64,000 nt of DNA from Gnetum montanum (Eukaryota; Plantae; Gnetophyta). The position numbers and the translations under genes are program-made. Position 1 is the first letter of the stretch. Every line of letters begins with the position of its first letter. Positions 11,175 to 61,100 of the stretch are shown in pieces. Location of the stretch: positions 88,570-152,569 of the forward strand of contig MNCI01002435.1 of the NCBI GenBank assembly GCA_015680685.1. The letters are read 5' to 3'. The notes under the pieces are model-generated. The model was not told the origin of the DNA. It saw only the letters and a program-made list of their open reading frames with translations, and did not search any database.

Positions 11175-11502
11175 GGTCTTGGCATCATGACCTAAAACTG
11201 ATACCATAGAATGGTCCAAGGGCTATGACTTGAAACTGGCACCATAGAATTTTTTGGAGTCATGACAATAAACTGATACCACAGAACCTTGTCTAGCATG
11301 ACACTAAACTGCCACATTTGTTCACCATGACGTAAAACTAGCATGCAGAGTCCACTAAGACTATAAACTAGTTTGCCTCTTCACAATCTGCTACGACTAT
11401 AAACTAGCACTACACCATCTGCTACGACGCTAAACTGGCACCGTCCAAAGGGTTATGACGTGAAACTAACCCGCAACAGTCCGCTAAGACTATAAACTGG
11501 TG
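11175..11502 (+). ncRNA. Tandem array of 10 coremin-like pseudoknot motifs at the start of the element A 3'UTR
   Basis: Ten units with conserved nGACnnnAAAC and covarying flanking stems, e.g. cgtccaaagggtta-tgacgtgaaac-taaccc and agtccacta-agactataaac-tagt. Confidence 0.7.
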
Positions 11503-14419: not shown

Positions 14420-14424
14420 TTTTT

Positions 14425-14440
14425 TAGTGCTAGAAGGAGG
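14425..14440 (+). promoter_or_regulatory. Primer binding site (tRNA-Asn type, degenerate) of element B
   Basis: TAGTGCTAGAAGGAGG versus intact TGGCGCTAGAAGGAGGG in C. Confidence 0.75.
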
Positions 14441-15089: not shown

Positions 15090-18000
15090 CTACGAATGAG
15101 TCCACTAGAATAGACAGGAGTACAACCCCTCCTTGTTTGACATAATCCCACTCACTAAGTCCTACCACCAGTTGTTGTCCCAACTCATCCGTGCAAACAA
15201 GCATGATGCAAGGACAACCTACGAGAAAGCCTCGCAGAAGGAGGAAGATGAGTTCGAGGCCCACTTTTAGCATGAGAGCCCCTTCCACATCGTCTTCCAA
15301 CAACCACTCCCTAGTACAACCCCTCCTTTATTTGGTCCACCCATCCCCTTTGAGATGGTGACCATGCCAATTCAACCTTCCTCACAAGCAACTAATGCAT
15401 TTTCCCAACACTATGCTCATGTAGGGGCCACCTCCCAGCCCTAAACAACTCAAACATCCTACATCCTGCCTATCTCATCGGTGTTTGTAGTGTTTTTCCA
15501 ACCCACCCATGTGTGGCCCACTCCAATCACTGCACCCATCGCTCAGCCAATACATCAACAATCGTCCACTACAATGTTAGACTGGCAACACCCATCCGCT
15601 ATGACATTAAACTGGTAGACTCTACAACCAACAATTCAACCCCATGTTATCCAACCAAGACAAGCCTAGTGATGAGTGGCGAGGTACCCCTACACTCAAC
15701 CATACGAAACGAGCGTCGCACGCGCGATCCGGTCGAACTCCGCAGATGGACTAGTTGTGGTATCTAGATAGTTAGCCTTAGGTCACAGTTCGCTGTCTTC
15801 CCATCTAGACTAGTTTTGCATATGTCACGTATGGTTTAGTCTAGATGAGGTGTATGATGTGTCCTAATCTAATGCTACTCCTGATGGCAATGGAAAATAA
15901 TATTTAACTAAATCTAAGCTAAGAGGAAAAGGGTAAGAAAATCTAATCTAGCCTAAGTGCGACGAGCAACCGATTCCTTGATCAACCGTACACATCTTGG
16001 ACTTCGTGCACGACTGCCACTGGGACTACCAAGCATAGGCCTAGGTACGCCACTGGGATTACCAAGCGCAGACCCCAAATACGCCACTGGGTTACCAAGC
16101 GTAGATCCCCCTAGCTACACCACTGGGCTACCAAGCAGTCACACTTAAATGCTCGTAATCAAGTCGAACTCGTTCCGCTTCTAGGAGTTCAGGGTTGAGA
16201 GACTAATCGCGATAAGTAACCGATTCCTTAACTAGCCGTACACACCCGTAGATGCTCGTAGTCAAGTCGTACTTACACCGCGCTATGAAAGCAATAAATA
16301 ACATGAAATAAATAACAATAAATAAACTAAGTGAATGCTGCAATGATGAAGTAATCTCGATCTTTATTGCCGGTCATGTGCATGTCCAAGTATGGCACAC
16401 TCGAATAAAGACACCGTACAATCACATTCACCACACTGCGGGCAGACACGGGAAAATTCTAACTCTGGAGGGATCAAATTGCCAGAGCTTCGCTACCTAA
16501 AACTAGGATCCCCAATTGAGGGAGAGCCGCCTCTTATTTATAGACATGACGGCTGACTGCGATATCGCGTACGCGATATCGTAGGGAAGGACGCGATATC
16601 GCGGCCGACGCAAACCGCGTCTCATCACCTAGCCAATGCAACCGGCTAGCACATCTGCAAGCTTGGATTAAGCATTCCAACTAATCCAAAGCTTGATGGA
16701 GAAGATCAACTGACTTAAGGCTACCTCCTCTAACACCATCAAGGTGGTGGACTTCTATGGAGATGACCCCATAAGTCCTACAGTACCACCCCTAATTCTT
16801 CCAACTGGGGCCCAACTGCCTCAATTTACCAAGTACAACGGAGAAGGGGATCCCAATGCACACTTGGTCACATTTTGATCTGAATGCCTACTCCTTCAAG
16901 CTTGGCCACATGCCATCATACATGTCTTCCCCATGTCACTCACTGGCAAGGCCTTAGACTGGTATCATGTGTTACCCAATGCCTCAATCTCCTCTTTGGA
17001 AGATCTCATAAGAATGTTTGTGACACACTTCAAATCCAACCTAAAGCCTGAAGCAACCCTCAACCAGCTGATGCAAGTTAAGCAGGGGCCTCTAGAGCCT
17101 ATGTCAAAATTCCTCCAACGTTGGAATGTTGCATTGAGTGAAATGCATGAACCCTTAGCACAGACACACCTACTAGCTATCTTCAAAGGTGCAGTGAATC
17201 ACTTCATCAAGTCCAAACTATATTATCTAGCCCCAAAGTCTCTTAGCCAATCCTTTACCCAAACAAAAGGCATAGAGGAAGCAACACAAGCTAGCAATGA
17301 TCCAACCCATGTGGCCTACAGAAACCAACATGCTTACAAGCAAAACAAAATAGTGATAACAGTAGCCACAAGCACAAAAGTAACCAACCAGGGCCCCATA
17401 GCTAAGCAGCCCAAGGCCCCAGCTAACAAAACCACCAATTCTGGCACCAACTCACCTACATTGATAGGGGCTACCCCAAGGCCCAAATTTCAGCGCAAGG
17501 ACTGCTCAAAGTATACACCACTATCGGTGCAACACTCTGAACTACTAATGAAACTCTTGAAATTTGGGCAAATCCAACACAAACACGTATCGACAATTAC
17601 TTGTCAAAAACATGATAAGTACTATGAACTACTAAGGAACCCCACTTTAGCAGTGCCAAATGAGCCCCCAATTCCACAACACTTCAAGCTAGACCAATAC
17701 TATCATTACCACCAATTGGTTGGTCACAGTACAGACAACTGTCGTGCTTTGCAGGATGACTTGTAGAGAATGATAGAAGGGGCCCAAATGGTGATCAACA
17801 CAGTGAGTCAATCCAACATAGATAATGCCTCCTATGTCATAAATTCCATTAGCATAGGTGGTAAGTCTAAACCTACACAACGACCTTTTGTGATCTGTGT
17901 GCCTCCCAGCAAGGCAAGGGTCCCCTCCGCTTCCATAAGCAAGAGGCCTTCCTTTATTATCAAAGTGCCACCTCGAGCACCCATAGCATCCTTTGTGGTC

Positions 18001-19215
18001 AAAGTTCCATAGCAACCATCCACTAAGACGTTAAACTGACATGATGCAACAATAATCGCTAAGTAACCTTTTATTATCAAGGTGCCACAACAAGCTGACA
18101 ACATAACAACTCCACCTAAATCACCATTTGTCATAAGGGTGCCACAACATGATGACCCCTCACCTACCCGAAGCCCAACAATAAGCAATGTCTCAATCTC
18201 TCCTCCCTCAAGGGTAGATCCCACTAGCAACCCGAGTGGACCTACCAAATGGCAACGCAAGAAGACAAATGAGCACCTTGCAACCCCCATGGCTGAAGCA
18301 AAAGCCACAACTAACAAGCAACAACCAAATATTGGGACCCCTACCCCCAAACAAGCCAAGAAAACCAAGCCCAAGTCCCCTCCATGAGAGATCTATCTCT
18401 CAAGCCACATGGAGAAAGTCAAAGGCAACACAATAGCCAATGACAAGGACTTTGTAGCTACACTAACCCAGGTGAAACAAATGCTCAAACAAAAGAATAC
18501 AACATTGAGCTTGTATGACCTGGTCATGACCTCATCTACTCACCACCAAGTCTTGGCCCAAATGTTGGCCTCCATTCCTATTATGGAGGACATCCCTGCA
18601 GATGAGGCATCCATCCATGCAACAATGTTACCTCCTACACCATAAGAATTGGGTTCAACAACCCTAGCCTTTCACGATGATGCAGTCAAAGTCAACTCCG
18701 AATGAGGGGAGGTCACTACAGCTCCATTATCCATTAGCATTCGTGTTGGGCAGTGCACAATCCGCAGAGTGCATGTCAATGATGGTGCAACAACAAACAT
18801 AGTCCTGTACTCCATCATCGACAAACTAGGTATGGCAGATGAAATCAGGCCAACCAAAACCACATGTCTAAAATCCTTCAACAGATCACGTGTCATAACC
18901 AAGGGTACAATCAACTTAGCCTTTGTGGCAGGAGAGTAATTCCCCACCGGTGCATATTTCACTGTCATAGAAGAGATGACAGGTTTCAACATGATTCTAG
19001 GTAGGCCTTGGCTAGCCCAACTAAGGGCCATCTCCTCTCCCATCCACCAAGAAATCCACCTTCCATATGAAGGTGGTCAAGTTATCATCCATGGTGATAA
19101 TGCTTCCTCTTCGACTATCCATGACATAGACATGGTGCAAGTTTTGAAAGAGGAGTTTCTTGGTGGTACACCTATGGCAACCAACGTAACGCCTAAGGCT
19201 AACACACCTGAATGA
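15090..19215 (+). pseudogene. gag-pro: Degenerate gag-protease of element B (interrupted by a solo LTR)
   Basis: FTKYNGEGDPNAHL, SLTGKALDWY, HQLVGHSTDNC, RRVHVNDGATTN, FNMILGRPWL; 5' boundary approximate. Confidence 0.85.
15670..16627 (-). mobile_element. Athila-like solo LTR with 5-bp TSD CCTAG
   Basis: TGATGAG...CTCATCA termini; CCTAG at 15665-15669 and 16628-16632; its reverse complement ends gtatggttgagtgtaggggtacctcgccactcatca, like the LTRs at 29081 and 34746. Confidence 0.92.
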
Positions 19216-19519: not shown

Positions 19520-19950
19520 ACATGGCCCAGAAAGGCCTTAAACTAGCCTATGGCCCGAAAAGGCCTCAAACTAGCCTACAGCTTGGAATGGCCTAAAACT
19601 ATCACTTTTGAATTGATTTCCTTTCATTCATCCATTTTAACTCTGTTTACAATAGGTGTTATTTGATGTTGTTTTCTTTTTAGTTGATTTTTTGCAGGAT
19701 CTTATAGGCATGCAGCACAACCATGCATGCAGTATTGCACCTTACACAAGCAAGGTAAGCACCAGTCCGCTATGACTATAAACTCGCATAGATAGTTCAC
19801 TATGACTATAAACTGGCATAGCTCGTCCTTAGGTCATGACGTTAAACTGGCACAACATCCACTATCTGCTACAACATTAAACTTGCATCCAACAATCTAC
19901 TAGAACTATAAACTAGCACATCACGGTCTGCCAAGACTTTAAACTGGCAT
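19520..19950 (+). ncRNA. Coremin-like motif arrays of element B (3 GGCC-type units at 19520-19602; 6 GTC/GAC units at 19764-19949)
   Basis: tggcccgaaaaggcctcaaactagc; cagtccgctatgactataaac; tcgtccttaggtcatgacgttaaactggc; ggtctgccaagactttaaactggca. Confidence 0.65.
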
Positions 19951-22604: not shown

Positions 22605-23960
22605 TAGGAATTTGATCTCACAATGGTAGATCAGAAAGGGATCAAGAATGTGATTGTTGACCACCTTTCTTGACTAAGAGCAAGAAATGACCAAGTACCC
22701 ACTGAAACAAAATGGTATGATGGCATCCTTACTTAGCTTCTCACTTAGGAGATGCCACAAGATTTGGACTTTAGGAAGAAACAACAATGTCTTCATCAAG
22801 CAAAGTAGTTTATGGAAATTAATGGACCCCCTTATAAGGTGTGTGCCAATGGCTTGTTTCATTGGTGTGTCCCTGATGTGGATCAACTATGCATTCTCCA
22901 AGGTGCTCACAAAGGCCCTTTCAAAAGCCACTATGCAAGGAGGTACATGACTAGAAAAATTTTGATGGCAGGATACTATTGGCCTACAATCTTTAGGGAT
23001 ACCCACTAGTTCATCTGATCTTGTAAATGTTGTCAAAGAGATGGTGGAATGACTGCACAAATGGAGGGTCCTCAATAGTGGATTCAACCATTGAAGCCCT
23101 TTGACATATGGGGCATAGACTTCATGGGTCCCATCACACTCATGTCCAATGGAAAGATGTATATCATTGTAGCAATTAACTACTACATCAAATGGGTAGA
23201 AGCAGCAGTTGTCACTAACTGTACATCATCCACTGCTACTAGATTCATACAATAAAATGTTATAAATAGGTTTGGGTTGCCACATGCACTAATTTCTGAC
23301 AATGGAACTCATTTTATAGATGTAACTTTTCAAAAACTTATCCAATGCTTGGGGGTTGAACATAAATTAACAACACCCTATCACCCCCAAGCCCATGATC
23401 AAGCAGAGGTAACTAACAGGGAGATCACAAAGATTCTAATAAGAATTGTTAGTAAATACAGGTGAGACTAGAGCATAAAACTCAACGATGCCCTTTGGGC
23501 CTACTACTCAACATGGAAACTCCCTATTGGCTACTCTCCCTTTAAGCTAGTGTACAGAAAACTTCTAATGCTTCTAATTCAATTTGAGCTCCATACACTC
23601 TTAATGGCCTATGAACTAAATCTTGACCTAAGTCTAGCACAAAAAGAAATACTAATTAACCTGAATGTGCTCAACAAGAATTGATTAGTGGCCCTATCTT
23701 TGAATGAGGTGTACAAGACATTCAATAAGCAATGTCATGACCTTAGAATAAGTAAAGAAAAATTCCAACTTGGTGATAAGGCCCTCTACTGGAACCCCAC
23801 ACATGAACCCCAAAAGACAAAGTTTGAAACGTTGTGGAAGGAACCTTATATAATTGATCAAACTTTTTCCTCTAGGGCCATGTTAATTTACAAACCTGAA
23901 AGCCCAAGTAAAAAGTAGTTGGTCAACATCCAACAAGTAAAACCTTTCCTTAAACTAAGA
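22605..23960 (+). pseudogene. pol: RNase H C-terminus + integrase remnant
   Basis: Motifs as above; PR/RT are missing between the gag-like Q/P-rich segment and the RH end. Confidence 0.85.
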
Positions 23961-40248: not shown

Positions 40249-43200
40249 TGTCAAGAATGGAGTTTGATTTTTCTCTCTTCATTTTTGGAAAGCTAAAATT
40301 TCTGGCTATTAATTTGGAAGCCTGAAATTTGGAAAGCTAAAATTTCTAGCTATTAATTTGGAAGGCTGAAAGTTGGAAAGCTAAATTTACTAGCTATTAA
40401 TTTGGAAGGAAAGCTAGAAAATTTAGCTATTTATGTTTGGAAAGTTGAAAATCCTAGTTATATATATATAGGTGTAATGTGCCTTCCTTTGGTGGAGAAT
40501 GTGTGTATCATTGTGAAACCTTAGAAATCAATAAAAATCCTAGTGCGATCGTGGAAGTAGGCAAAGTTAAGCTGAACCACATAAATCTTTCTTGTTTTGT
40601 GTGTTTGTTTGTGATCTTTTATTCCTTTTTCCCTTGTTTCAATTCCTAACAACTGGTATTAGAGCTAGGTTCTTAGTGAAGGATAGTGGGAGTGATGGAG
40701 GAAGGGAAGGTTAAGATTGACAAGTTTGATGGCAAAGATTTCAGATTTTGGAATATGCATATTGAAGATAATTTGTACCATAAGAAACTACATGAACCCT
40801 TGTTTGGGAAGAAGCTAGAAACCATGAAACAAGAAGATTGGGATCTCTTAGATTGCCAAGCACTTAGTGTGATTAGATTGACTTTGGCACGAAATGTCGC
40901 ATTCAACATTGTTAATGAGAAAACCACAGCGGGTTTGATGACGACGTTGTCAAGCATGTATGAAAAGCCGTATTCTTCGAACAAGGTATATTTGATACGT
41001 AGGTTGTTCAATCTAAAGATGGGTGAAGGTACATTAGTCACAAATTACATCAATGAACTCAATGTTATTATTAGTCAATCGAGTTTGGTGGAGATTACCT
41101 TTGATGATGAAATCAAGGCGTTGATTTTGCTATCATCCTTGCCAGAGAGTTGGTTTGCAACAATGATTGTAGTGATTAGCTCATCAAGTAATTCAAAATT
41201 AAAATTGAATGATATTCAAGACTTGATTCTTAGCAAGGACGTTTGTAGAAGGGAGTCAAGCAAATCCTCAGGGTCTGCTTTGAATACAGAAAGTAGAGGT
41301 AGGAGCAATCAACGTGATCAAAACCATGCTAATGGTAGATCGAAGTTGAGAGGTAGAGGAAAATCTAAAAATTGCAAGGAAGTTATCTGTTGGAATTGTG
41401 ATAAAATGGGTCACTTTAGAAATCAATGCAAGGCACCAAAGAAGAAGAAGAATCAAACTCAAGATGATGAATCAACAAATGCAACTAGGGAGATTATTGC
41501 TGATGCTTTTGATCTGCTGTGTGGACAATCCTATTGAATCTTGGATTTTGGATTTGGATGCTTCATTCCACTCCACTCTATGCAAGGAATTGTTACACAA
41601 TTATGTTGTAGGGAAGTTTGGAAAGGTTTATCATGTAGATGATGACCCTTTGGATATTGCGGGGAAGGGTGAAGTTCAAATAAAGACCGCCCAAGGGATG
41701 CAGTGGAAATTGCAAGATGTTAGATGTGTTCCTAGACTCAAGAAAAATTTAATTTCCATGAGTCAAATGGATTCAGATGGGTATACAACAACATTCGAAG
41801 GTACATCATGGAAGATAACCAAGGGAAACTTGGTTGTTGCACGAGGTAGTAAGGTGGGAACGTTGTACATGACTGTAGCAAAGAAAGATACAGTGGCAGT
41901 TGCTGACTATGGTGTTGATTTGATCTTAGGGCATTGAAGACTTGGGCACATGAGTGAAAAAGGTATGAAGTTGTTAGCTTCAAAGGGGAAGTCACCAAAT
42001 TTGAATTCTGTTGATGTCGGCTTTTGTGAAGATTGTGTTTATGGGAAGCAAAAAAGGGTTACTTTTTGAAAGATAGGGAGGACATTAAAGACTGAAAAGC
42101 TTGAATTGGTGCATTCAGATGTATGGGGGCCAGCTCCAGTAAAGTCTCTCAGAGGCTCGAGCTATTATGTCACCTTCATTGACGATTCCACTAGTAAGGT
42201 ATGGGTTTATTTTCTCAAAAATAAATCTAATGTGTTTGCTACATTTAAAGATGAAAAGTTGAAGTAGAAAATCATATTGGTTTGAATATCAAATGTCTAA
42301 AGTCAGATAATGGAGGAGAATATGATAGCAAAGAATTCAAGAATTTTTGTTTAGCAAATGGGATTAGGATGATCGAGACAGTTCCAAGAACACCAAAGCA
42401 AAATGGTGTTGTTGAATGGATGCACAGAACCTTGAATGAAAGAGCTAGGAGCATGAGAATACACTCTGGGCTACCAAAGCAATTTTGGGTAGATGTAGTT
42501 AACACATCAGCCTACCTCATTAATTGGGATCCTTCAGTTCCATTGGGGTTTAGAATACCAGAGGAGGTATGGACTGGGATGGAGGTAAATTTTTCACATT
42601 TGTGAATTTTTGGGTGTGTCTCATATGTGCATGTTGATTCAAATGCTAGAGATAAGCTTGATCCTAAAGCTAGAATGTGTTTTCATTGGTTATGGATCTG
42701 ATGATATTTGTTATCGATTTTGGGATAATCAAAATAAGAAGATCATAAGGCATAGGGATGTTACCTTTAATGAAAACCTGATGTTTAAGGACAGGATTGG
42801 CATAGAATTAAAGTGTGCAAGGGAATAGACAAAAGAACATGACAAGATTGAGTTGGAGGGAATTTTAGAAAGTGATGTGGCTAGAAGAGAATTTGAGATG
42901 AAAGACTAGGGGCCAGCTAAGCAGATACTTGGGATGAGAATATCCAGAGATAGATCAGAGGGACTTCTGAAGCTATCTCAAGAAAAGTACATAGAAAAGT
43001 TGCTGAGCAGGTTTAGTCTTCAAGATGCCAAGATCAGAAATGCTCCTATGGGAAGCCATTTTCATCTCTCCAAGGAGCAGTCACCAAAGATAGATGAGGA
43101 GAGAAAATACATGGCTAGAATACCTTATGCTTCAGCAGGTGGAAGCTTGATGTATGCTATGGTGTGTACAAGGCCAGACATAGCTCATGTAGTGGGAGTT

Positions 43201-46609: not shown

Positions 46610-49600
46610 ACAATTCTAGGACATAATAATCGTTGATGAGATTTGGCTCTCTTGGTTTGTTTTGCACTGGGTGCCTTCATCATTTTTTGAGTTTGATTCC
46701 ACAGATTTACTTATGCTTCTTTGTTTTGTAGTTCACACTTTACTAGTCTATTTATCTTATCTGGAGTTTTAATTTATGTGGAGATTTTTCCGTGTGATTC
46801 TTAAATGCTTTTTTCTGCATATCCAGATCGTTTTTTCTTGATGATAAACTCCAGGCAATCATTATATCATTACTGATGCGTACATGTGTAGTACATTTAT
46901 GGTTGATTTACCTTTTAGTTTGGGAAAGAGCATACGGAATGCCTTGCTAGCTCGTGAAAGCTCTTGAACTCCAAGCAAATGAATTTGTGCTTTGTAATTA
47001 TTTCCGGTGGAAGCATGTGAGCATGAAAGCATGGGATCATGGACATCATGCCATGCCATGTCTTATACATTAAAAAATCTAGAAATTGCAAACAAATCTC
47101 AAATGTACATCCAGAAACTATCCCATTTCCAAACAATTTGCAAAACTAGGGCCAAATCCCCTACAGCTCCTCCATGTCATCACTTGGCCAACAAGACTTT
47201 GGCAAACAACTAGAGAAAACCAATTATCAACCTTAGGATCATAAGGACAGCAGAGAATGCACAAATTTGATGAGTAGAGAGAACAACAGTGCATTTTAAG
47301 CAGAAAAAAACGTGCATTTGAGAAGCAAAGACAGCAAGATATGCTAACCCTAGCAAAATATATATATGCACCGTCAAGAGCCATTAGAACAATAACTTGA
47401 GAGGCAAAAATTAAAATTGTAGAGAAATGTTTTCCACCAGTTATTTCCATTTCTTCTTTTGGATGGTGAAGTTTTTTTATCAAAAATTGTTGGACTTTAA
47501 TTTAGAGATGAACACAATAAAGAAGTGGGCTGTGTTTTAATTATAAGTTTACAATTTCGGTAGGCTTTGCAAGTTATATAGAGGATGCAGGATTTGAGCA
47601 GTGCTTTGTTGAGCCAGTTTTCAAAGGTATAATGTCATATGCAATTGGCAGATTTAATTTGGTTTGGTAGATACTACTGAAAACAACCATTATAAAAGCT
47701 GAATTTGAATTCTCAGTGTATCATTCAATTGGTAATTATCAAAAATATAAACAATTTTTAGTTTTCACTAAGGAAAAAGAATAGTTTCAAACAAACATAA
47801 AGGAACGAAATACTTGCTGAGTAATGATTCCATCACAAAATCATGATAAGCTAAACAGAGCAAAGCAAAGCTTTCATTTCATTCTCCACTTAACGTCTCT
47901 TTTGTTTTAATGTGTCCTCCCCTGCTCTCTCTGCCAATACTATGATTTATAGGAGTATTTTCTGATTCTAGTTGCATATGGTTAAGAAGGCGGGAGGAAA
48001 TTGCAACAGTTATACAGGCATATCTGTATAACCTTTATTAGAGTTTTTGCTTCATGTAATGCAATGTTAATTAGTAAAATAATTTACTTGAAGAAACGCT
48101 TGAAATTGAATGGTTTTTGTAGAAAACTGAAGATGACCTCCTAGGTGTATTCTGAGTCCACCATTAAATTTAGCATGGTAAAAAATATTGGAATTTATCC
48201 CTTATTTGGTAGAAATGCACTTTAGGTTAGAAAATTATCATTATTTGAAATCTTGCCTTTGGTAGGGTTTGAACTATTAATCTCTGAAATTTGTCTGTGT
48301 GTATTGATCAAAGATGATATCCTTAGTGGATTGGGAATGGACCGTTGTCAAGTTGAAAACATTGGAGACAGCTTTGTTCAAATTGGAGTAGGAATGAGGA
48401 AGTTATGGTCCTTCAAGCATCTTAAATCTGCCTCTACTGTTTGAGATTTGAATTTGTGATCTTTTCCTCAATACACATGTTCAAAGGTGTTAGATTTGGT
48501 GTGGGGCTTCTATTGTTGTGTTTACTGACTCTCATACCCTCTGACACTTGGAAGAAATTTATTGTGCAATGGAGACTGCCTGGAAAATGCAAAATTGGAG
48601 ACTCCCTACAAATCAACATTGGGATGATGATCCATATCTCTCAAATTGTTGAACAAAATTCATCATATGAATAATTGAAACAAACCTTTGTGAAACACCC
48701 CAAAAAATTGTGAAGTCATTCTCGCTTCACTTGGCCTTGCAATCCGCGGAACACCATGGCAGTTCTTCAGGAGGAGAATGCCCTGAGCCTAGGCCGGCTA
48801 GTTCGGCAAATTTTCTACTTTGGGCATGGACGGGCCTTACATCATCCTGCTTGTCCACCCAAGTAGCCTGCCCAACTGACAGCCTACTCAAAAACGGTGC
48901 GCGGAGTTGGCAGCAGCATTCTGGATGCACGAAACAGTTCGGCAAGTTTTCTAAGTCACGAAGTCTGCTACACTACGCTACGACTCGTAGCGTAGCACGC
49001 TTTAGAAAACGATGGCAGAACGAAGTGCTACGCTACGCTACACCACGTAGCGTAGCATAGCAACAACTTCGTTACCACTCCCCTTGCCCAATTTCAGGAT
49101 ATGCAGCAATGTCCCTTCCTACCAGGAAGCGGCGGACCATGTCTGCTGCTACACTACGTCGAGCTACATGGCGCAGCAAGGCGTAGCAATCTTGCGGAAG
49201 AGACAGAAGGCAGCTCAAAGGGCAGAATCGGCAGAGTTCGCAAGACTTGCATCGCATGAGACAAAGTTTGCAGATCGGCAAAACTTTCACGATTAAGGCC
49301 AGTTGCTACGCTACGTAGTGTAGCAAGCATGCAACATATAGCAGAACGTGCGACAAGGTGCTACGCTACGCCAAGCATGCTACGCTACAAATCACAGCAA
49401 GGCATGAGGGTGGTTGTGCGACATTAATGCACTTCACCTAATTTGACCATTGGCACATGTCTCCAAACGCTGACGGCGCAATTACGGCGTGGCAGGCTCG
49501 TAGTTATTGCATGACGGGTTTGCGTTACAACGGCCTCATAGGTCCAACGGTCATGCATGGCACAAATGGTGCTAGCAAGTCAACGAAAGCCCAAGGCACG

Positions 49601-50388
49601 TAGCGTTCAAACTGTCTCTTTTGCATACCCTTGGTCCTATAAATACCTTGGCAAGTAGCATTCAAAAAGAGGCCGGAATTTCTTGAAGTAAGTAGCATCC
49701 AAAAAAGTTAAAAGATTTTTGGAGAGACAGCATTGAGAGATTCGGGCTTGCTCCTTAACAAGTTTCTTTTTACATCGAGCATTGTAAGCTTCCTGTTTGA
49801 CACTGCAAACAGTTAGCATTTTTAGCTGGCATTTTGTTCTATCCTTTTTTTCCTTTTTTCTTCTACCACCTTGGTAGAATCCCTGTGCGGCCAACATTCA
49901 GGTCCGCACCAAAGCGCACCACTTGCTTTGCTCGACATGTCCTGGTCATTCTCGGGATCTCTGCACGTCGTCGCACTGTGCAACCGATTGTATCCACCCT
50001 AATGGAGCAAACTTGTAGTTCTTGAGCGGTGCATGTTTCTAACTACATTTTACCTTATTTCCTGCCTGTTGTCTCGTTTTGCATTATTTTCCTGTTTTAT
50101 TCATTTTTAAGCATTACTTCGCATTATTGTGGCATTTTAAGCTGTTTCTTTTCCGCTTTATTTATTTTCGAGCATTATTTCGCATTCCATTTCGTCTCAA
50201 AAATATACATTGCAAAAGGCTATATTGACGCCGATGTAAGTCCCTGTTTGATCGACCAGACCGTTCAGGGCACCATGTGTCCACACACACCCAACACGAC
50301 CCTCCCGCGGGTATGGGGTCGAAACTGTCGTGCCCATTGACCCCCCGGTGTTTTCCAGCCGTCGACGTTTTCGGTCGCTACAATTTTC

Positions 50389-50405
50389 TGGCGCTAGAAG
50401 GAGGG
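50389..50405 (+). promoter_or_regulatory. PBS complementary to the plant tRNA-Asn 3' end
   Basis: TGGCGCTAGAAGGAGGG is the reverse complement of ...CCCUCCUUCUAGCG-CCA (tRNA identity from memory). Confidence 0.8.
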
Positions 50406-50469
50406 CCTTTTGTTGCCTTCGCCGTTTGTCACGGTAGTTCTGTGAGCCTTTTGCGCCCTGATACACATG

Positions 50470-51305
50470 AGTGTAGACGCAACACCCTCTTGTGGTTGTT
50501 TGCGCTTTGTGCGGTGCAGATCGGTCGCCTTGACGGTTCCTCGGGAGCCCTATAGAACACAAGGCCTCCGATCACCGGTTAACTAGCTCTTACGGTTGTC
50601 TTGCATGTGTTTTGTACCCCATCCTGTGTGGTACAGAGCGGTCGCTTCGACGGTCCTTCGGGGATCCTGCGAGACGCAAAGCCTTGTCGATCGCTAGTTA
50701 GCTTGCCCGTCTTATGGTTGTCTTGCATGCGTTATGTACCCCATTCCTTGTGGTACAGAGCGGTCGCTTCAACGGTCCCTCGGGGATCCTGCAAGGCACA
50801 AAGCCTTCTAGTTAGCCTGCTTGTCTTACGGTAATCTTGCAAGCCTTCTACACCCCTGTACGCATTAGCGTAGACTCGACACCATATGTGGTTGTTTACG
50901 TGTTGTGCGGTGTAGATCGGTTGCCTCGACGGTCCCTCCGGGATCCTGTGAGACATAAGGCCTTTTGACAATTAGCTAACTTGCCTTCCTTTCTTTTTTA
51001 TGGTAGTCTTGCATGCGCTCTACACCCTAGATCGCACAGGCGTAAGCGCGACACCCTTTTGTGGTTGTTTAGGCCTTGTGTGGTGCAGGTCGGTCGCCTC
51101 GACGGTCCCTCCGGGATCTTGCGAGACATAAAGCCTTCTTGATTGCCAGTTAACTGAACTTGTCTTACGGTAGTCTTGCACGTGCTCTGTACCTCATCGC
51201 GCACTAGCATAAACGTGACACCCTTTTGTGGTTGTTTATGCTTTGTGTGGTATAGATCGGTCGCCCCGACGGTTCCTCCGGAATCTGGCAAGACATAAAG
51301 CCTCC
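50470..51305 (+). repeat. Six imperfect 110-180 bp tandem repeats in the 5'UTR of C
   Basis: Core ggtRYaga(t)cggtcgcYtYgacggtYcctccgggatc at ~50512, 50630, 50752, 50909, 51082 and 51249. Confidence 0.85.
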
Positions 51306-51387
51306 TTGTGTTGCTCTTTCAGTCTCTTTATTCTTTTTGCGCTTCTTGCGCCTTTTTTTCCTTTTTTGCATAATTACTTGCTTAGCA

Positions 51388-54300
51388 ATGGCTTCCACGA
51401 CCACCGTTGTTGACACCTTCAATGCGGAGGTGCCCTTCACGATTCAAGGCACCACTGGTGCTAAACAATCGTTGAACCCAATGATGGAAACACGATGATC
51501 CCTCAGAATCCAAAATCAAGGACTTGAGGGATTGGCCCAGCAATATGAGCATTACAGCTTCCTTTGTGCAAAGGTGCAGGTCAGTCTGCCCTTGGATTTA
51601 CACGAGCTCGAAGAAAAACGTAGCTTCGAGTTCGCTTACTGCAACGGGAAGGAATTCGTTCCTACCCCCGGCGTTTTGTTACCTTTAACACAAGCGTATC
51701 AAAGGCTCTTGGACCAACTAATCCAGTTGGCCAGGCTTAGGGAGCAACAGGACACAGCGTCCGACTAAGAGGACACCTTCCAAAACGGACAGGAGGAACT
51801 CGATTCCCAATCTGACGAGGGAGGCCAAGTCAACCCCATTCTTATCCGTCCCACCCAGTCCTTCTGGGCCAACCCGTTGTCTGTCACCGCCCCATTTGCC
51901 ATTACGCCTATGCTTCCGCAGCCTACAGCTGCAACTGCAATGGGTAGCCATACCACATTCCAAGCATATCCTTGCACTTATTCCCCTATTGCGTTCACAG
52001 CAGCTATGCCCCCGCAAACTGATTATCAGCACATTCCTGCAGTATGTAACATACCTATCACGGCTACCCTACTGCATGTTCATACTATACCTTCGCAACC
52101 GCACATAACTGCCATGCCAATTCCTACGCTAGCATCTATTCCACCCATAGTGGTGGGCCCCGGTCTATCCACGTGGTGGGCACCGTTCGCTTCTTCATTT
52201 GTTCTACAATTGTTGCAGATGTCTCACCACGTTCGCCCTCAGACCTACTTTACCCCGCAAACGGTACATCCTAATACAGGGACATGGTCTGTCCCGCTGG
52301 TGATTCAAACGGTCTATTCGGTGGCTCAACCCGTTGTTACTGCTATGACAGTACCACCCACTAGGTGGTGGACAACGCAAACAACACCTACAGCGGGGGC
52401 GGCCTCGACGGCACCGTTGATGGGTCAGCCCGCCACCGCCACCATGCCGCATGTGGGAGCTGCCTCTTCAGTCCCTCAACTGTCTATAGCGTCGCCAGGT
52501 CTGGACCAAGCGTTTTAGCTCATCCAGACCCTCAATGAGGAAATAAAACGCCTAAAAGCAGTGGGGTCCGACACGGTACAGGTCATGGACTTTTATTAGG
52601 ATGACCTCGTCAGCCCTGCAATCCCTGCTTTAATGTTACCCCCCGGGATGTCTCTCCCACACTTCACGAAGTACGACGATGAGGGAGATCCCAATGCGCA
52701 TCTTGTCACTTTCAGGTCTGAGTCTTTGTTGTTGCAACAATGGCCGCACATGATCATTCGTGTCTTCGCCATGTCCCTAGCCGGGAAATCCTTAGATTGG
52801 TACCGCGCGTTGCCACGCTCATCCCTTTCAACTTTGGAAGAGCTCCTGACCTAGTTCGTGACATGCTTCAAGTACAACTTGAAGCTAGAAACCACGCTGG
52901 ATCAGTTGATGAGTGTGAAACAAGACCCGCTAGAACCAGTCCAAAAATTTATTCAACGTTGGAGCACAACCCTTAATGAAATCCGCGAGCCCATCGTGAA
53001 GGCTCACTTGTTGGCCGTCTTTAAGGGTGCAGTAAACGACTTCATCAAGTCCAAACTATATTACCTCGCTCCTCGCTCTCTTAGTCAGGCTTTTGCTCAG
53101 ACTAAGAGCATACAAGACGCGGCCGAAGCAAGCAAAGACCCGGCCTATATCGCTTACAAAAGCACCTTCGCAAAGAAGGATAAGGGTAAGGGCCCAACAA
53201 CCACAGTAGCCGCTGTGGCAACCGAGGCCAAGCCCAAGCCCAACAGTAGCGGTAGCAAAACTAACAAGAAACCGGCCATACCTACGGCTAATCCTGCGCC
53301 GAAACTGGGCCAAGCACCGCAACCCGTTGCACCTACACCCGAGACATCTGCATACACCAAACCCAACTTTGAGCACAAAGACCGCTCAAAATACACCCCA
53401 CTGCCTCTCAAACCTTCAGAACTCCTGAAGCAACTGTTGGCAGCGGGATACATCCAACACAAGCAGATGTCGGAAGAAGCAAACGCAAGACATCAACGCT
53501 ACTGCGAGCTCCTTAGGAATCCCTCTTTGGCCCTGCCCAATGAGCCTCCGGTCCCTAGGGGTTTCAGGTTAGACAGGTTTTGTGACTACCACCAACTGTG
53601 TGGTCACACCACGGATTATTGTCTGTCGTTGCATAATGATATCCAAAGATTAATCGACCTGGGGAAGCTGGTACTAGACAAAAGCAACCCAGTCTGCCCT
53701 GAAAATCAATCTATGTATGTCTACACAGATCCCCTCAACGCCAATAATGCTGGTTACGTAATTAACACCATCGGCATTGACAACAATCCCACGCCACCCC
53801 GCCAGCCATTTGTGATCCGTGTGCCTCAGCGTAGTGCACTAGCACCGCCAATGGTTGGTCCAAGCTTGTAGCTGCCCTTCATCCTAAAGGTACCACCATC
53901 AACATCCACCTTTGCACTGCCTGTTGGCGAGGCCATGCGGTCTTGTTAGTTAACACCTCTAGCTCCATTCATTATCAGGGGGCCGATGTCCTCAAAGGCC
54001 CCTATCTCGCACAACACAGCTGAGCAGCCTCCTCGCCTTGCAAGGCGAGAAGTCCGCTTTGTGGACGAAATGTCGAAGGGAAGTACCGTCAAAAGCATCC
54101 CCATGCCTACGTTTTCGCCCCTTGCATCTGTACCTTCGTCGTCAAAGGCGAAGATCAACATGACTACGCAGCCTGCATTACCCTGTCGGCAAGGATCTGA
54201 GCCCAGATCTGAGTCAACCTCCCCTCAGGAGATTCGTCTTTTGGGGTGGATCGAAGAGGAGGAAAGTGTCAAACAAGCGAGCGGCCAAGACCTTTTGGAC

Positions 54301-55206
54301 ACCCTCATCCAGGTCAAGCAAGCTTTAAAGCAGAAAAATGCCACACCAAGCTTGTACGATCTAATCATGACTTCTGTACCTCACTGCGAGGCTCTAGTCT
54401 GCATATTAACGACGATTCTGGTCGACGAAAACATGCTAGCGGAAGAGGAAGCGATTCACTCGGTAATGCTTTTCTCTGTACCCGTAGAGCCTGCACCATC
54501 CCAATTAACTTTCAATAACGACGTCATTAGGGAAGATCCCGAGGGGGGTCAAGTAACTACGGTGCCTCTCTTCACCACAATTTGGGTCGGCCAACACCGG
54601 ATCCAAAGGGTACACGTTGATGACGGGGTTGCCACAAACGTTATTCCCTTCCCTATTGTGGACAAGTTGGGATTGGTCGACCAGATTAAGCCCACGGCGA
54701 CGTCATGTCTGAGGTCCTTCAACGGGGCACGGGTCCTGGTGAAGGGCACAGTTCACATAAACTTCATAGCAGGGGATCAGTTCCCCACAGATGCAATGTT
54801 CATCGTAGTCGAAGAAATGCCCGGGTTTAACTTGATCTTGGGAAGATCATGGTTAGCGCAACTTAGGGTTGTTTCCTCGCCCATACACCAAGAAATCCAC
54901 TTACCGTACGCAGGTAGGGAGGTGGTAATCCGCGGTGACGAAGTTGCAACGCAAGCAATCGGCAACGTGGACATGGAACAAGGCTCAGAGGTTACGACCT
55001 CTGAGAATGAAGCGCTTGTTCATGCATACGTTAATCATTCAACGGAAGGATCAGCTCAACGAGCCGACTCCCAAACCAAAAACGCATGGGTCGAGTTGCC
55101 CTTCCAAGCAGAGGACAATGATGTGAACAAGGGCCCTGGCGAAACACCTTGGCCTTGTGTTCCAATCAACCCACGACGGGTCAAGAAGCAGCTACGCATA
55201 GCGTAG
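51388..55206 (+). pseudogene. gag-pro: gag-protease of C: one continuous frame broken only by ~7 point stops
   Basis: ORFs at 51532, 51877, 52633, 52858 and 53986 are all in the same frame; FTKYDDEGDPNAHL, FCDYHQLCGHTTDYC, QRVHVDDGVATN, FNLILGRSWL. Confidence 0.92.
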
Positions 55207-55294
55207 CAACCCTACCGCTTCTTGCCAGGTTGCCATCCCTTGTACATTTGCCGTTTCCTTGTCTTGTCAGCATGCCGTCCTGTCGACATGCTAC

Positions 55295-55452
55295 GCTATG
55301 GCCCAAAATGGCCTAAAACTAGCATTGTTGCTTTCCACCTTATTAACATGCCGTTCTTCTGGCATGTTACGCAATGGCCTAAAATGGCCCAAAACTAGCA
55401 TGGCCCGAAATGGCCCAAAACTAGCGATGGCCCGAGATGGCCTAAAACTAGC
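55295..55452 (+). ncRNA. Four GGCC-type coremin-like units after the gag-pro stop of C
   Basis: atggcc(c/t)(g/a)a(a/g)atggcc(t/c)aaaactagc x4. Confidence 0.6.
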
Positions 55453-55622
55453 ATACGAGAGCATAAAAACTTTACATGGTACACAAGTTAACATAAAATT
55501 GGTTCCTTTTCTGAAGTTTTTTCATTTCATTTAAAAATTTTTGCCTATTGGCAATGTTTGCAAAATTTTCAAAAAAAAAAAAAACAAAAAAAAGGAGAAA
55601 AAAAAGGAAAAATCCCATGCTG

Positions 55623-57869
55623 TCATGGGTTGTCTCCATCTGCATTGCCTTCGTTGTTTGCCTCCACTTCATTTACTTGTGCATCGTCTGCCCCTGCGTT
55701 GCCTTCTACTTGTTTCGCATTTCTTCCCTCCACGGGTCTTGCACCCTCATCTGGAGCTTGCATCGCAAGAATGAGGTAGTCAGCAAGCGCAATAAATGCA
55801 ACAAACACTAGCTATAACATAGCATGAGCATCTACTTGTTAAAGCAATTAACCTGAGGAGAGCCTACGTCGGTCTCAAGGGGTATTTGGTCTAGACCAAG
55901 CCTGAGGTGACGCCAAATCTCCTCTGTCGTAATGTCCATCCAACACCTGTCGCTAGGTTCAGCATTCATAGTAGCAGCTTTCTCCCTTTCCACGGTTGTC
56001 CATTTTAGAGGTTCCGAGGAAAGGGAAGTGGTTGTGGTCTCCCCTGTAGGAAGGTTCACCTGCAAGTCAGGAGATTCCGTCACCTTCACCTGCTCTTTGA
56101 ACTTAGCGTAGGCCTTAGAAGCACCAATGACATTCACAAACGCTTCATACGTGAATGCCTCCACGACAGCATCTTTGTACAACCTTCGATGGGTCTCATT
56201 CTCTAGCTTATACATATGTTTGTGGTCTCTCTGGGTTTTTCCCCATTCGAAGACCTTGACGCTGATGTCTTTCATGTCCTGGCACTTCTGAGCCAGCAAG
56301 TCCATCTGCATTTGCTGCTCGACTATCTCGCAGGTGGACTCAACGTTTTGGTGAATGACTGTCCAAAATCTGGCATGGTCATCCACCGCCCTTTTCCAAT
56401 CGACAACGTCAGGGTTACGGTTTATAAAAAAAATCATTCCTCGACCTGAGATTCGCCACCTCGGTGGCCAGGTCGGCCTCTCTCTGCTCAGCCCCTTGGA
56501 CCCGCTTCCACAGGTCCTCGTTGACACGCCTACACTCCCATAGAGAGCGTGCCAAGCGCAAGACACACTTGTGAGCCTCGTCAAACGTGCGACGAGGCAC
56601 CTCGGTCACGTCAGGTGAGAGTGTAGGCACAACGCCAACCTTCATAGGTCGTGCCGAGTCCCACTTGAGTCGAGAGGTTGTCTGATGCAAAGAGTATAGC
56701 AACTGCATTAGCATGGCAGAATCAACAAACTCAAAATTTCAGCGTAACAACACAGGAGCATTTAACACTACTAGTTACTTGCGCGAGGGTCCTCCTGCTG
56801 AAGGTGTTTGATCATGTTGTCAACAAGTCCCTGCATGAATGTAAACTTGTCAGGGACCTCGGCCCATGACTCCACATGAATCGGAGGGGGTCCCAAAGCA
56901 TCAGTAGCAGCACCCATTACACGATTAAGCATGTCAGCAATGGCAAAAGTGGACTACGATAAGGTAGGCATCCTATCAACTCACCAGTGCCCAACTGTGG
57001 CCTTTCTTCTTGCTGATGCAAGATGATCACGGTGGTCCCGGTGGAGGGCCTTGCCAAGTCCATGTGAGCCCCTTCCTCATGCGCTGGTGCCTTCCCTTTT
57101 AGGAGACCAGCGTCTTTTTTATTTAGGGGAGGCACCTCTTCGTCGGTGGGAGGAGGCTCCCTGATGACAAGAGCCCCTGCCCTAGAGATAGGAGCTCCCT
57201 TATTCCCGACCGGTGCCCTTTCCTCCAAGGCTGGGGCCTCCGCGTCTTTATTAGTTGTCCTCGTCTTGAGGGCCGACACTTCCTCGTCGCCTTCTTTTTC
57301 ATCTTCTTCTTCCTCTGCTAGCAAAAGCGTATGTTTGCGTCAATTCAAAATAAGTTAGCTTAAAACAGATGCTACGCTACGTCGCATCGCTTAGCAAACT
57401 ATGGCAAAGTAGGCATTACGCAAAAATGCTTACCAATAGGGGGTTGCGTTCTCCGCAGCTTGAGCCACAGTCTTTGCCTCTCCCCTTCATGGAGGTTTTC
57501 CCTGGTTGGGGGAGGCCTCTTCCTTCGCAACTCCTTGGGTGCTATCTCAACCATGAGACGTTCACCCCGTGTCACGCTACCGGTTATGACAGGGGGTGTC
57601 TCTCCCACGCTGTCCTGGCCACGAATGCTACGAACTGCCAAATTTTTAGTCGTTACAGATAACGACTCTCCAACCATTTCCGGGGGATCTTGGGATTGCA
57701 TGGTCCAAAGGACCTGACGAATCCATGGTTTGGGAATCTGGTCGCGGTCTTGCATGGTCCAGACCCTGTCCTCCTGGACCACTAGGAACTCCGCGAAGCG
57801 CTTTAGACAACCTATGTAGAAGGCATAGTGTATGTTAGAGCGGGACTTCGTTTGCTCATGGAGTCCCAA
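55623..57869 (-). pseudogene. 5'-truncated antisense accessory gene of C (5 exons)
   Basis: Exons 57869-57434, 57317-56985, 56916-56779, 56702-55853 and 55757-55623; donors GTAAGC, GTGAGT, GTAACT, GTTAAT; peptides align with A (WIR....T..SQDPPE; G.V.....HLQQ; L.WD; AR[FY]W; MDLL..KC.D; Q.DHKH). Confidence 0.8.
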
Positions 57870-58115
57870 AATCCGCTACGACGATAAACTGGCAACAACA
57901 TCGAGCAGCGTCTGCAATGACGATAAACTAGCAGCATCGGCAACCGTCCACTACGACGTAAAACTGCCACCGCTAGTCCACTATGACTATAAACTGGCAT
58001 TGCTCGTCCGCTACGACGTTAAACTGGTGTGTACGGTCTATTGGGACCTTAAACCGGTACAGCGGTCCGCTGGGACCTTAAACCAATACACGGTCTACCA
58101 AGACCTTAAATTGGG
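57870..58115 (+). ncRNA. Tandem array of 8 coremin-like pseudoknot motifs in C
   Basis: cgtccgctacgacgttaaactggtg, tagtccactatgactataaactggc, ggtctattgggaccttaaaccggta and others. Confidence 0.7.
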
Positions 58116-61100
58116 TTCGCATCACGTCCCCAACATGCACCAGCACCAGATACACATCAAACGAGTGGGCGCGATGCTAACATGTGGGTGGGACGTCGTA
58201 GCCCTGGAACGTGATTCACAATGCACTGATAACGTGGTCCGGGACAAGTGCGACGCCGCCACCCTTGGCATCATGCTGACCCCTCGAAGACACCATATGG
58301 CGTCACATTGGCCCCTCGAACCTACCGTCGCCACGGCCCACCGCCCTGATGGTAGTTCCTGGGCTAGTCCTCCAATCCCCTGCCAACACCTCGGCTTGCA
58401 TGATGTTTAGCTATGTGGTAGCCGATCCCATAGCTGAACTCAGCATGCATGCCTTTGGCGGGGATTCTAGTGCATTCGCACCCGCAACAACTCTTGGCAC
58501 CTCGGAGGCCAGATCCTCCACGTCGGTGCTACCAAGGCAACTGCTGGCCTCCCTGCTTTGGGCACCTCACACTAGCAAGGGTGCCCAAGAGTAACAACAA
58601 TGCCAGCAGCCAACGAGACCTTTGCCTCCGCAGGCACATCTGGCCGCAGCAGCAAATGCTGCAGCGTCTTGAAGTGAGTGCCTTGACTAGCACTGTTGCT
58701 TCAGAGTGCAAGCTCCATGATGCGCGTAACACAACTCGTTGCATGGAGTGCATCTGTGGGTAGGTCAAAACCCTTCACGGATGTAATGCAACTCATCCTG
58801 TGAAGGGAACACCTGACCTACAAGAGGTTGAAGAACAATGCCAGCCAAAGATGAAAACGCAAACGAGCCCCTCAGAGCATTCCAACGAGCGAATCCACTA
58901 AACATCATCTTTGCTCTCTACCTTAACCTCTGCACAATCAATGCAACACTCTCAAGTGCAGCCAAGCGACGTCCTGACACTCACCAAAGGACAACTTAGC
59001 ATTTTGATGCGGTGTTTCATATTCTTTGCCGACGTCTATCGAGCCCGGTCTCCAGATGCCGACAAAGAGGGGCCAATGAAACATCCCAAAAAATTGTGAA
59101 GTCATTCTCGCTTCACTTGGCCTTGCAATCCGCGGAACACCATGGCAGTTCTTTAGGAGGAGAACGCCCTAAGCCTAGGCCGGCTAGTTCGGCAAATTTT
59201 CTACTTTGGGCATGGACGGGCCTTACATCATCTTGCATGTCCACCCAAGTAGCCTACCCAATCGACAGCCTGCTCAGAAACGGTGCGCGGAGTTGGCAAC
59301 AGCATTCTGGATGCACGAAACAGTTCGGCAAGTTTTCTAAGTCACGAAGTCTGCTACACTATGCTACGCCTCGTAGCGTAGCACGCTTTAGAAAACGATG
59401 GCAGAACGAAGTGCTACGCTACGCTACACCACGTAGCGTAGCATAGCAACAGCTTTGTTATCACTCCCCTCGCCCAATTTCAGGATCTGCAACGATGTCC
59501 CTTCTTGCCAGGAAGCGGCGGACCATGTCTGCTGCTATGCTACGTCGAGCTACATGGTGTAGCGAGGTGTAGCAATCTTGCGGAAGAGATAGAAGGTAGC
59601 TCAAAGGGCAGAATCGACGGAGTTCGCAAGACTTGCCTCGCAGGAGACAAAGTTTGCAGATTGGCAAAACTTTCGCGATTAAGGCCAGTTGCTACGCTAC
59701 GCTACGCTACGTAGCATAGCAAGCATGCAACATATAGCAGAACGCGTGACAAGGTGCTACGCTACGCCAAGCATGCTATGCTACAAATCACAGCAAGGCA
59801 TGAGGGTGGTTGTGCGACATCAATGCACTTCACCTAATCTGACCGTTGGCACATGTCTCCAGACGCTGACGACGCAATTACGGTGTGGCAGGCTCGCAGT
59901 TATTGCATGATGGGTTTGCATTACAACGGCCTCATAGGTCCAACGGTCATGCATGGCACAAATGGCATCAGCAAGTCAACGAAGGCCCAAGGTGTGTAGC
60001 GTTCAAACCATCTCTTTTGCATACCCTTGGTCCTATAAATACCCCGGCAAGTAGCTTTCAAAAAGAGGCCGGAATCTCTTGAAGTAAGTAGCATCCAAAA
60101 AAGTTAAAAGATTTTTGGAGAGACAACATTGAGAGATTTGGGCTTGCTCCTTAACAAGTTTCTTTTTACATCGAGCATTGTAAGCTTCCTGTTTGACACT
60201 GCAAACAGTTAACATTTTTAGCTGGCATTTTGTTCTATCCTTTTCTTTCTTTCTTCTTCTACCACCTTGGTAGAATCCCTTTCCGGCCAACATTCAGGTC
60301 CGCACCAAAGCGCACCACCTACTTTGCTTGACATGTCTTGGTCATTCTTGGGATCTCTGCACGCCGTCACACTGTGCAACCAATTGTATCCACCCTGACG
60401 GAGCAAACTTGTAGTTCCTGAGTGGTGCATGTTTCTAACTACATTTTACCTTATTTCCTGCTTGTTGTCTCATTCTGCATTATTTTCCTGTTTTATTCAT
60501 TTTTAAGCATTACTTCGCGTTATTGTGGCATTTTAAGCTGTTTCTTTTCCGCTTTATTTATTTTCGAGCATTACTTCGCATTCCATTCCGTCTCAAAAAT
60601 ATATGTTGCAAAAGGCTATATTGACGCCGATGTAAGTCCCTGTCTGATCAACCAGACCGTTTAGGGCACCCCGTGTCCGCACACACCTAGCATGGCCCTC
60701 CCGTGGGTACGGGGTCGAAACTATCGTGCCCGCCGACCCCCGGTGTTTTCCAGCCGCCGACGTTTTCGGTCACTACACTTTGGATGTCTACTTTTCAATG
60801 CAGAAGGAATTAGATCAATTGGTTCAGTCTTATTATAGATGTTATTCCCACGATCAAGATTGTCTAGAATGACCAAAATTGAAATAAAGGTTTCAATACT
60901 AACTCCTCCGTCCAAGCTTTTGTTTGGAACTTGAGAAAAAGATTATGCCAAATTCTTTTATCAAGGGATAATGAATGAGGTTTGATTTGTTGAGGCTTGG
61001 ACATAGTTTGGTTTTAGAGTATTGCAAGGAATTTTGCGATCTCTAATGAAAGATAGGAAGAATTCACAGCAAAGTTTGTTGCAAGATTATTCACATTTCT

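Follow-up and report, generated by a model that had tools for sequence, protein, structure and literature searches.

The systems closest to the repeats described here are the coremin-containing RNAs of viruses. The element of BNYVV is built from two hairpins, the first of 4 bp, with a conserved spacer between them (PMC10520033). Coremin loops of six bases work under the rule YGNNAD, and CGAAAU, CGAGAU and CGCAAU loops were Xrn1-resistant in vitro; a final loop C abolished resistance in the BNYVV context (PMC10520033). In xrRNA-C, a second hairpin has to follow the spacer directly, and insertion of one or two bases there cut resistance (PMC6546385). Hexaloop coremins have been found in BNYVV RNA3 and in umbra-, enamo-, hypo-, chryso- and picorna-like viruses (PMC6546385, PMC10520033). 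A Watson–Crick variant of the coremin, xrRNA-WCC, comes from Sanxia picorna-like virus 5, where a compensatory replacement of the A7–U19 pair by G–C kept resistance (PMC10321173). In the context of these three papers (PMC10520033, PMC10321173, PMC6546385) the coremin fold is described as unsolved.

Among retrotransposons, the domain order RT-RH-aRH-INT is the Ogre/Retand arrangement of the Tat clade (PMC6317226). According to a 2025 survey, about half of the recently active Retand elements contain tandem arrays, the origin and function of which the survey calls unknown (PMC11963269). Our literature search, in which subscription journals were thinly covered, returned no coremin or other xrRNA placed in a transposon.

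Tandem arrays in four Tat elements

The window, by which we mean the whole 64,000-nt stretch of Gnetum montanum DNA that was analysed, is nested plant-type LTR-retrotransposon DNA. Its element C (48691–60777, + strand) is a complete non-autonomous Tat-type Ty3/gypsy LTR retrotransposon with a 5-bp target duplication, CTTTG. The 5′ LTR (48691–50382, +) and the 3′ LTR (59077–60777, +) are 100 transitions and 9 transversions apart in 1690 aligned bases. The primer-binding site (50389–50405, +) presumably matches tRNA-Asn. Downstream lies a broken gag-protease region (51769–55206, +) with 53% identity to the frame of element B that bears the Pfam Retrotrans_gag domain, and the polypurine tract is at 59064–59072 (+). 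Gag and protease are thus present, and no RT, RNase H or integrase was found in element C. On the opposite strand, an ORF region (55832–57875, −) holds frames of 257 aa and 158 aa with homologs in element A; the 257-aa frame (55832–56605, −) shares 34% identity with a decayed copy there. These antisense ORFs matched no Pfam family and had no database relatives. Protein searches likewise gave no relatives for gag; the protease frame had none in PDB, and a search of viral contigs with the integrase gave none. Long tandem repeats of 122 and 167 nt, unrelated to the motif discussed below, are present in the 5′ UTR of element C (50426–51308).

Three further elements lie on the same strand. Element A retains the end of gag and the protease (13–1740, +), and element B has gag, protease and a polypurine tract at 21089 (+), the end of its last sense frame being uncertain. 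In element D, Pfam detected RVT_1, RT_RNaseH, RVT_3 and rve in this order, corresponding to RT, RH, aRH and INT, so that an archaeal-type RNase H, the Tat criterion of PMC6317226, lies between RH and integrase. Element C, which is without pol, was placed in Tat because its gag, protease, primer site and 3′ end are common with A, B and D. An LTR-like stretch at 12665–14440 sits between the polypurine tract of element D (12651) and a primer-site-like motif of element B (about 14425); possibly D and B are tandem elements sharing one LTR.

The antisense region of element C is bracketed by two arrays of a short motif. Array 2 (57870–58116, +), about 950 nt upstream of the polypurine tract, comprises eight predicted pseudoknot units with a period of 28–39 nt, starting at 57870, 57909, 57945, 57975, 58005, 58035, 58064 and 58092. 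Each is laid out as stem 1 (NGTC/GACN) with a 6-nt loop, NNAAAC and a tail pairing with the loop. The core GACNNNAAAC occurs seven times in the 247 nt of array 2, compared with a mean of 0.059 and a maximum of 1 in 2000 dinucleotide shuffles; the eighth unit has AAAT where the other seven carry AAAC. Across the window, the same core is found 28 times on the + strand, which is the strand of all four host elements, and 3 times on the − strand, with 4.8 and 3.3 occurrences, respectively, in 30 shuffles. A pattern of three consecutive units has five matches in the window and none in 100 shuffles. Pattern listing and the shuffle test thus bear out the eight units that an earlier note on this DNA had reported at 57870–58115, and the six further units that it had placed in element B at 19764–19949 are present as well. 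The motif is, however, far commoner than that note had suggested: we list 38 units (34 with six-base loops and 4 with loops of 10–11) in six arrays or singles, and there is a second sequence class.

Array 1 of element C (55300–55453, +) has four GCC/GGC units with a period of 26–27 and begins 94 nt past the protease-frame stop. Element B carries six GTC-class units, one with a 10-nt loop, at 19764–19949 (+), and a GCC-class array of two clear units and a decayed third at 19524–19604 (+). It also has two units in its 5′ part (15563–15617, +; starts at 15563 and 15593), upstream of the recognisable gag frame, and a single unit between gag and protease (18017–18041, +). About ten units, three of them with 10–11-nt loops, make up the array of element D (11175–11502, +), which begins 20 nt past the integrase-frame stop, and six units form that of element A (1774–2017, +), which starts 13 nt past a stop in the protease frame. 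The first array therefore begins 13, 20 and 94 nt past a stop in the last sense frame in elements A, D and C. All four Tat elements of the window carry arrays, and the motif is absent near its other two retroelements. These are a more distant Gypsy integrase (23019–23462) and a copia gag-protease (40680–41937). The persistence of the motif in non-autonomous copies, pointed out earlier, is borne out by element C, yet element D, which has pol, carries an array as well.

Several other identities of the arrays were considered. Rfam 15 covariance models gave no match at the gathering score in the window and none at E ≤ 1 in 55200–59100, so that no known ribozyme, riboswitch or frameshift element was detected, and a tRNA gene search found none. 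A 193-aa sense frame running across array 2 (57829–58410) has no Pfam match and is taken as a by-product of the repeat. A frameshifting role for array 2 was rejected, since the array lies outside any sense ORF of element C.

Base pairing and likeness to viral elements

A unit consists of stem 1 (NGYC), a six-base loop, stem 1′ (GRCN), NNAAAC and finally a loop-pairing tail; the loop is a pyrimidine, four bases ending in A and one free base. Each unit fits a predicted 25-nt H-type pseudoknot. As in viral coremins, the loops of the GCC/GGC class (55300–55453, 19524–19576 and the unit at 1993) are rich in purines and its tail is UAG; in the GTC/GAC class loop bases 3–5 mostly pair with the tail.

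We asked how well the pairing is kept. Among the 34 window units with six-base loops, 83.6% of stem cells are paired compared with 71.3 ± 1.6% after shuffling (reached in 0 of 500 shuffles), and double changes in the stems number 34 versus 11.6, both figures ignoring relatedness. When partners were slid as a control, pairing was at most 37.7%. The outer stem-1 pair occurs as all four Watson–Crick types and is paired in 32 of 34 units. On a minimum spanning tree it shows 6.8 joint changes, all of which keep the pair, versus 3.0 expected (p = 0.035, uncorrected for 300 pairs). Once relatedness is allowed for, neither inner pair of stem 2 reaches significance in the window (p = 0.35 and 0.11). 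In a set of 394 distinct non-viral units drawn from a wider search, the four highest of 300 position pairs by corrected mutual information are four pairs of the model: that on the outside of stem 1, both inner ones of stem 2 and the stem-1 U–A/C–G switch, the first three of which were left free in the search pattern. A tree-aware test on 412 units gave p = 4e-4 for U–A/C–G. For loop-4/tail-2 it gave p = 0.008, with 2.5 of 12.5 joint changes keeping the pair and many being class switches. As to strand, the signals are mixed: G–U outnumbers A–C by 44 to 12 at one pair, the ratios at the others being 33:23, 20:27 and 5:7. Nested folding of the array did not favour the sense strand (z of −0.96 versus −1.95 for the reverse) and is uninformative on strand.

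The earlier note had built its case for RNA structure on the swap of the closing A..T pair to G..C. The swap is real in units 58035 and 58064 (58035–58088, +), where the A–U pair of the loop becomes G–C and the last loop base is G, but these units adjoin and represent one event that was duplicated; on the minimum spanning tree the pair likewise gives one event (p = 0.03, uncorrected for 300 pairs). The G–C form of the closing pair recurs once, in metagenome locus L067. The accompanying switch of stem 1 to GGTC/GACC is present in both G..C units, but the A..T unit 58092 has it too, which means that one change does not depend on the other. Nor is 58005, presented as the best unit, the one nearest to the viral type: its loop ends in C and its E-value against a model of viral units is 0.016, whereas 57909 reaches 2.7e-4. 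Comparison of sequences nevertheless supports the claim that selection acts on a base-paired structure, chiefly through pairs that had been left unused: the outer stem-1 pair, the U–A/C–G switch in stem 1, and the recurrence of the same pattern in unrelated elements and RNA viruses. The closing-pair swap itself contributes one event in the window and one in L067.

Units of the viral type and those of the Watson–Crick type also differ in their loops. The second loop base is G in 146 of 164 of the former versus 71 of 195 of the latter (rows that are not independent), and Watson–Crick pairing of loop bases 3–5 with the tail appears to free this position. Departures from the fixed bases total 25 in 27 GTC-class units, 13 being G>A and 6 C>T; that 19 of 25 belong to these two types is expected from decay after insertion.

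How close are the arrays to xrRNA-C? Shared features are a 4-bp first hairpin closed by C–G, a pyrimidine as first loop base, A at loop position 5, in most units the spacer NNAAAC-U, tolerance of longer loops, tandem repetition and a place on the sense strand behind a stop codon. The first hairpin of xrRNA-C has 3–5 bp and a pyrimidine–purine closing pair; in array 2, C–G closes all eight units and all four stem-1 pairs form in seven. Two units of array 1 have the viral-type loops CGAAAT and CGAGAT, which as RNA are identical to the resistant loops CGAAAU and CGAGAU (PMC10520033), and the UGCAAU loop of unit 57909 comes near to CGCAAU, tested in that paper too. Both arrays of element C follow its last sense ORF on the strand that encodes gag, as expected for a sense element in an untranslated or intergenic position. 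A covariance model built from 26 RNA-virus units returned 35 window matches at E ≤ 10, 33 of them on the + strand, and every one of the 21 matches at E < 1 falls in an array on that strand, with 57909 in the lead; this test is partly circular, as the viral training loci were found by a window-derived pattern.

There are differences as well. The host is a chromosomal retrotransposon, and most units of array 2 replace the non-canonical loop–tail contact by 3–4 pairs of the Watson–Crick or wobble kind. A single one of the eight units of array 2 obeys the loop rule YGAD/YGNNAD, as do two of the four in array 1 and 10 of the 34 six-base-loop units of the window, compared with 22 of 27 viral units; some of the failures are CG>CA decay. 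The spacer of array 2 has AAAC in 7/8 units, the following U in 6/8 and the next A in 2/8, and that of array 1 is AAACUA in 4/4. There is no adjacent second hairpin: the next hairpin is stem 1 of the next unit, at a distance of 5–16 nt in array 2, 3–4 nt in array 1 and 3–5 nt in viral tandem arrays. With half of its loops conforming and a gap as in viral arrays, array 1 comes close to the published rules for xrRNA-C. Because array 2 departs from them in both the loop and the hairpin distance, we liken the arrays to xrRNA-C without filing them as members; by analogy, they are likely to work in a similar way.

The Watson–Crick form invites comparison with xrRNA-WCC, as described in PMC10321173. 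Both have a canonical loop–spacer pseudoknot and show the same A–U to G–C swap at the same pair, and in the two variant units (58035 and 58064) the last loop G stands opposite the C of AAAC. Three consecutive canonical loop–spacer pairs, as in xrRNA-WCC, form in six of the eight units of array 2; save in the two G-ending units, their register is shifted by one base 5′ relative to that of the virus. Unlike xrRNA-WCC, which has a four-base loop that must start with G, array 2 has six-base loops starting with C or U in 8/8 units.

The tandem arrays of Retand elements, as described in PMC11963269, share with ours the RT-RH-aRH-INT order, the antisense ORFs and the region in which they lie, but are presented there as family-specific DNA repeats. 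No motif match was found in four supplement files of that paper, which do not include the element sequences. The core was also absent, by eye, from 16 Lathyrus repeat consensus sequences (PMC7004042, supplement 3), and thus the motif explains only some such Tat arrays.

The motif beyond the window

The three-unit pattern was found at 7 loci in viral contigs and in 95 stretches, representing 92 loci, in metagenome contigs. A related GTC-only pattern gave no match in prokaryote genomes, and a Watson–Crick-extended array pattern gave none in viral contigs. For annotation, 203 of 239 frames of at least 95 aa were submitted to Pfam, namely the 2–6 longest at each locus. By this criterion ten loci are RNA-virus contigs: all 7 of the viral set plus, from the metagenomes, L011, L040 and L025, the last being a copy of L002. 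In all ten, the array is on the sense strand, 10–148 nt past a stop or over the last 18 nt of the frame, and its period is 26–28 nt. Of the other 89 metagenome loci, 35 form one cluster and 10 another, which leaves 44, some of them probably chance matches; the bacterial two-unit matches L030, L043 and L047 were kept in the counts. Comparison with the window by blastn and tblastn showed no resemblance for any of the 92 metagenome loci, and the evidence from plants comes solely from the window's elements. Wherever the strand can be told, arrays outside the window are on the sense strand.

The 35-locus cluster (L061, L067, L020, L059 and others) has the sequence features of a copia-like LTR family, presumably in a fungal host to judge by neighbouring genes. 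Downstream sequence of at least 300 nt is available at 17 of these loci; a copia-type polypurine tract and LTR start follow on the array's own strand at 11 of the 17 and on the other strand at 1, the polypurine-tract pattern having been tuned after viewing the data. The Watson–Crick-extended arrays of this cluster are situated 70–680 nt ahead of the polypurine tract. In L061, which is inserted in a copia RT gene, both LTR starts flank the array and no ORF is recognised between them. In L052, seven viral-type units (425–653, −) lie 75 nt past the stop of a 1126-aa RT frame, and we take this locus to be a LINE-like element whose 3′ UTR holds the array. Endonuclease-like motifs, judged by eye, are visible in the same frame.

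Other occurrences are more varied. L016 has three in-frame units (89–188) just upstream of a copia-type RT domain. L064, L013 and the 10-locus cluster contain many dispersed viral-type arrays in a eukaryote repeat, which in L064 adjoins BRCA2-like domains. The arrays in L008 and L023 are 0.8–1.3 kb downstream of a dynein heavy chain frame on the same strand and could belong to a host 3′ region or an unrecognised repeat. L020, L046, L079 and L084 have arrays on both strands of mirror-image contigs, which are probably assembly or amplification chimeras; each locus was counted once.

Possible roles of the arrays

Because of the match to viral elements and the shared position, we consider it somewhat probable that the arrays are a roadblock to 5′–3′ exoribonucleases that would leave a stable 3′ RNA. 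The tandem 25-nt motif of the sense RNA would fold into the predicted coremin-like H-type pseudoknots. After decapping of the transcript, or a cut upstream, degradation by XRN4 (or by nuclear XRN2/3) would proceed as far as the first intact unit and stop there. The product would be a stable uncapped 3′ RNA of at least 1.2 kb (array 2) or at least 3.8 kb (array 1), and this protected RNA would include the polypurine tract and U3-R. A series of units would tighten the block and let it tolerate mutations. Two forms coexist, a viral type with the non-canonical contact of loop G2 with tail A and a Watson–Crick type in which loop 3–5 pairs with the tail. The weakest step is the benefit to the element, at which we can only guess by analogy: the RNA might be a silencing decoy like BNYVV ncRNA3, which acts against silencing (PMC5086608), or it might be a protected 3′ template for strand transfer.

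The exonuclease roadblock gains support from the location of the units, which follow the last sense stop and precede the polypurine tract, together with the paired changes in stem 1, the likeness to viral arrays and the tested loops found in array 1. Against it count the rarity of YGNNAD loops, the distance of the next hairpin and the lack of significance of the inner stem-2 pairs once relatedness is considered, and likewise the three units of element B and the three of L016 that are in or ahead of coding sequence. Moreover, according to PMC8892269, RNA escaping XRN4 feeds RDR6 silencing, and xrn mutants left EVD expression and copy number unchanged; feeding RDR6 would be a cost to the element and counts against a roadblock.

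The main rival, unlikely in our view, is that the RNA knot stops ribosomes, either just past the last stop (scanning, re-initiating or read-through ribosomes) or as a pause in coding sequence, so that the long 3′ region would be kept free for packaging and reverse transcription. The two are not exclusive and may act side by side. xrRNA-C does stall scanning ribosomes and stimulate frameshifting, the latter without the second hairpin (PMC10520033, PMC10321173), so a ribosome barrier would account for the missing adjacent hairpin; arrays within 100 nt of the stop in A, C, D and L052, the in-frame units of L016 and the unit between gag and protease in B also fit. It is less easily reconciled with array 2 of element C, which is 2.7 kb past the stop, with the non-coding copia-like arrays of L061, which have no ORF to guard, or with unit 18017, ahead of which no slippery heptamer is seen by eye. 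Repeated RNA sites for Gag or a host protein, serving packaging, dimerisation or nuclear export, seem quite improbable. Retention of the motif in non-autonomous elements agrees with such sites, and structured export elements are known in mouse IAP and MusD (PMC12786077), but Gypsy, copia-like and LINE-like elements and several RNA-virus groups share no capsid protein, which would leave a host-wide ligand.

A neutral tandem repeat that resembles the coremin by chance is very improbable. Tat/Retand 3′ regions often hold family-specific tandem repeats (PMC11963269), the motif is short and the window copies are decaying. Yet core and pairing persist although the spacers differ, the two sequence classes have a single fold in common, the motif occurs in four diverged elements as well as in unrelated lineages, and no match occurred in 100 shuffles or in prokaryote genomes. 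We give the least credence to action as DNA, through sites for an element-encoded protein or as a promoter of the antisense ORF starting at 57875. Array 2 is directly upstream of the 158-aa antisense frame, and Retand antisense proteins are predicted to bind DNA (PMC11963269). However, this would not account for the paired changes across stems or for the motif in RNA viruses, which have no DNA stage. Moreover, element A has an antisense homolog with no array beside it, and B and D have arrays with no detected antisense homolog.

Returning to the exonuclease roadblock, we tentatively put forward a broader proposal, in which we have less confidence: Gypsy-Tat, copia-like and LINE-like elements may independently have adopted the coremin as tandem XRN roadblocks that make stable 3′ non-coding RNAs. 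These would be the first xrRNAs of cellular genomes, their Watson–Crick-extended six-base-loop form would work without a second hairpin, and they would explain part of the Tat arrays.

Exonuclease-resistant RNAs have been described from viruses, and our literature search, with its thin coverage of subscription journals, turned up none from transposons. The natural series from the non-canonical to the Watson–Crick form constrains the coremin fold. If the arrays do stall XRN, a large class of plant genome DNA would encode decay roadblocks of the viral type, and part of the unexplained tandem repeats in Tat 3′ regions would have a function.
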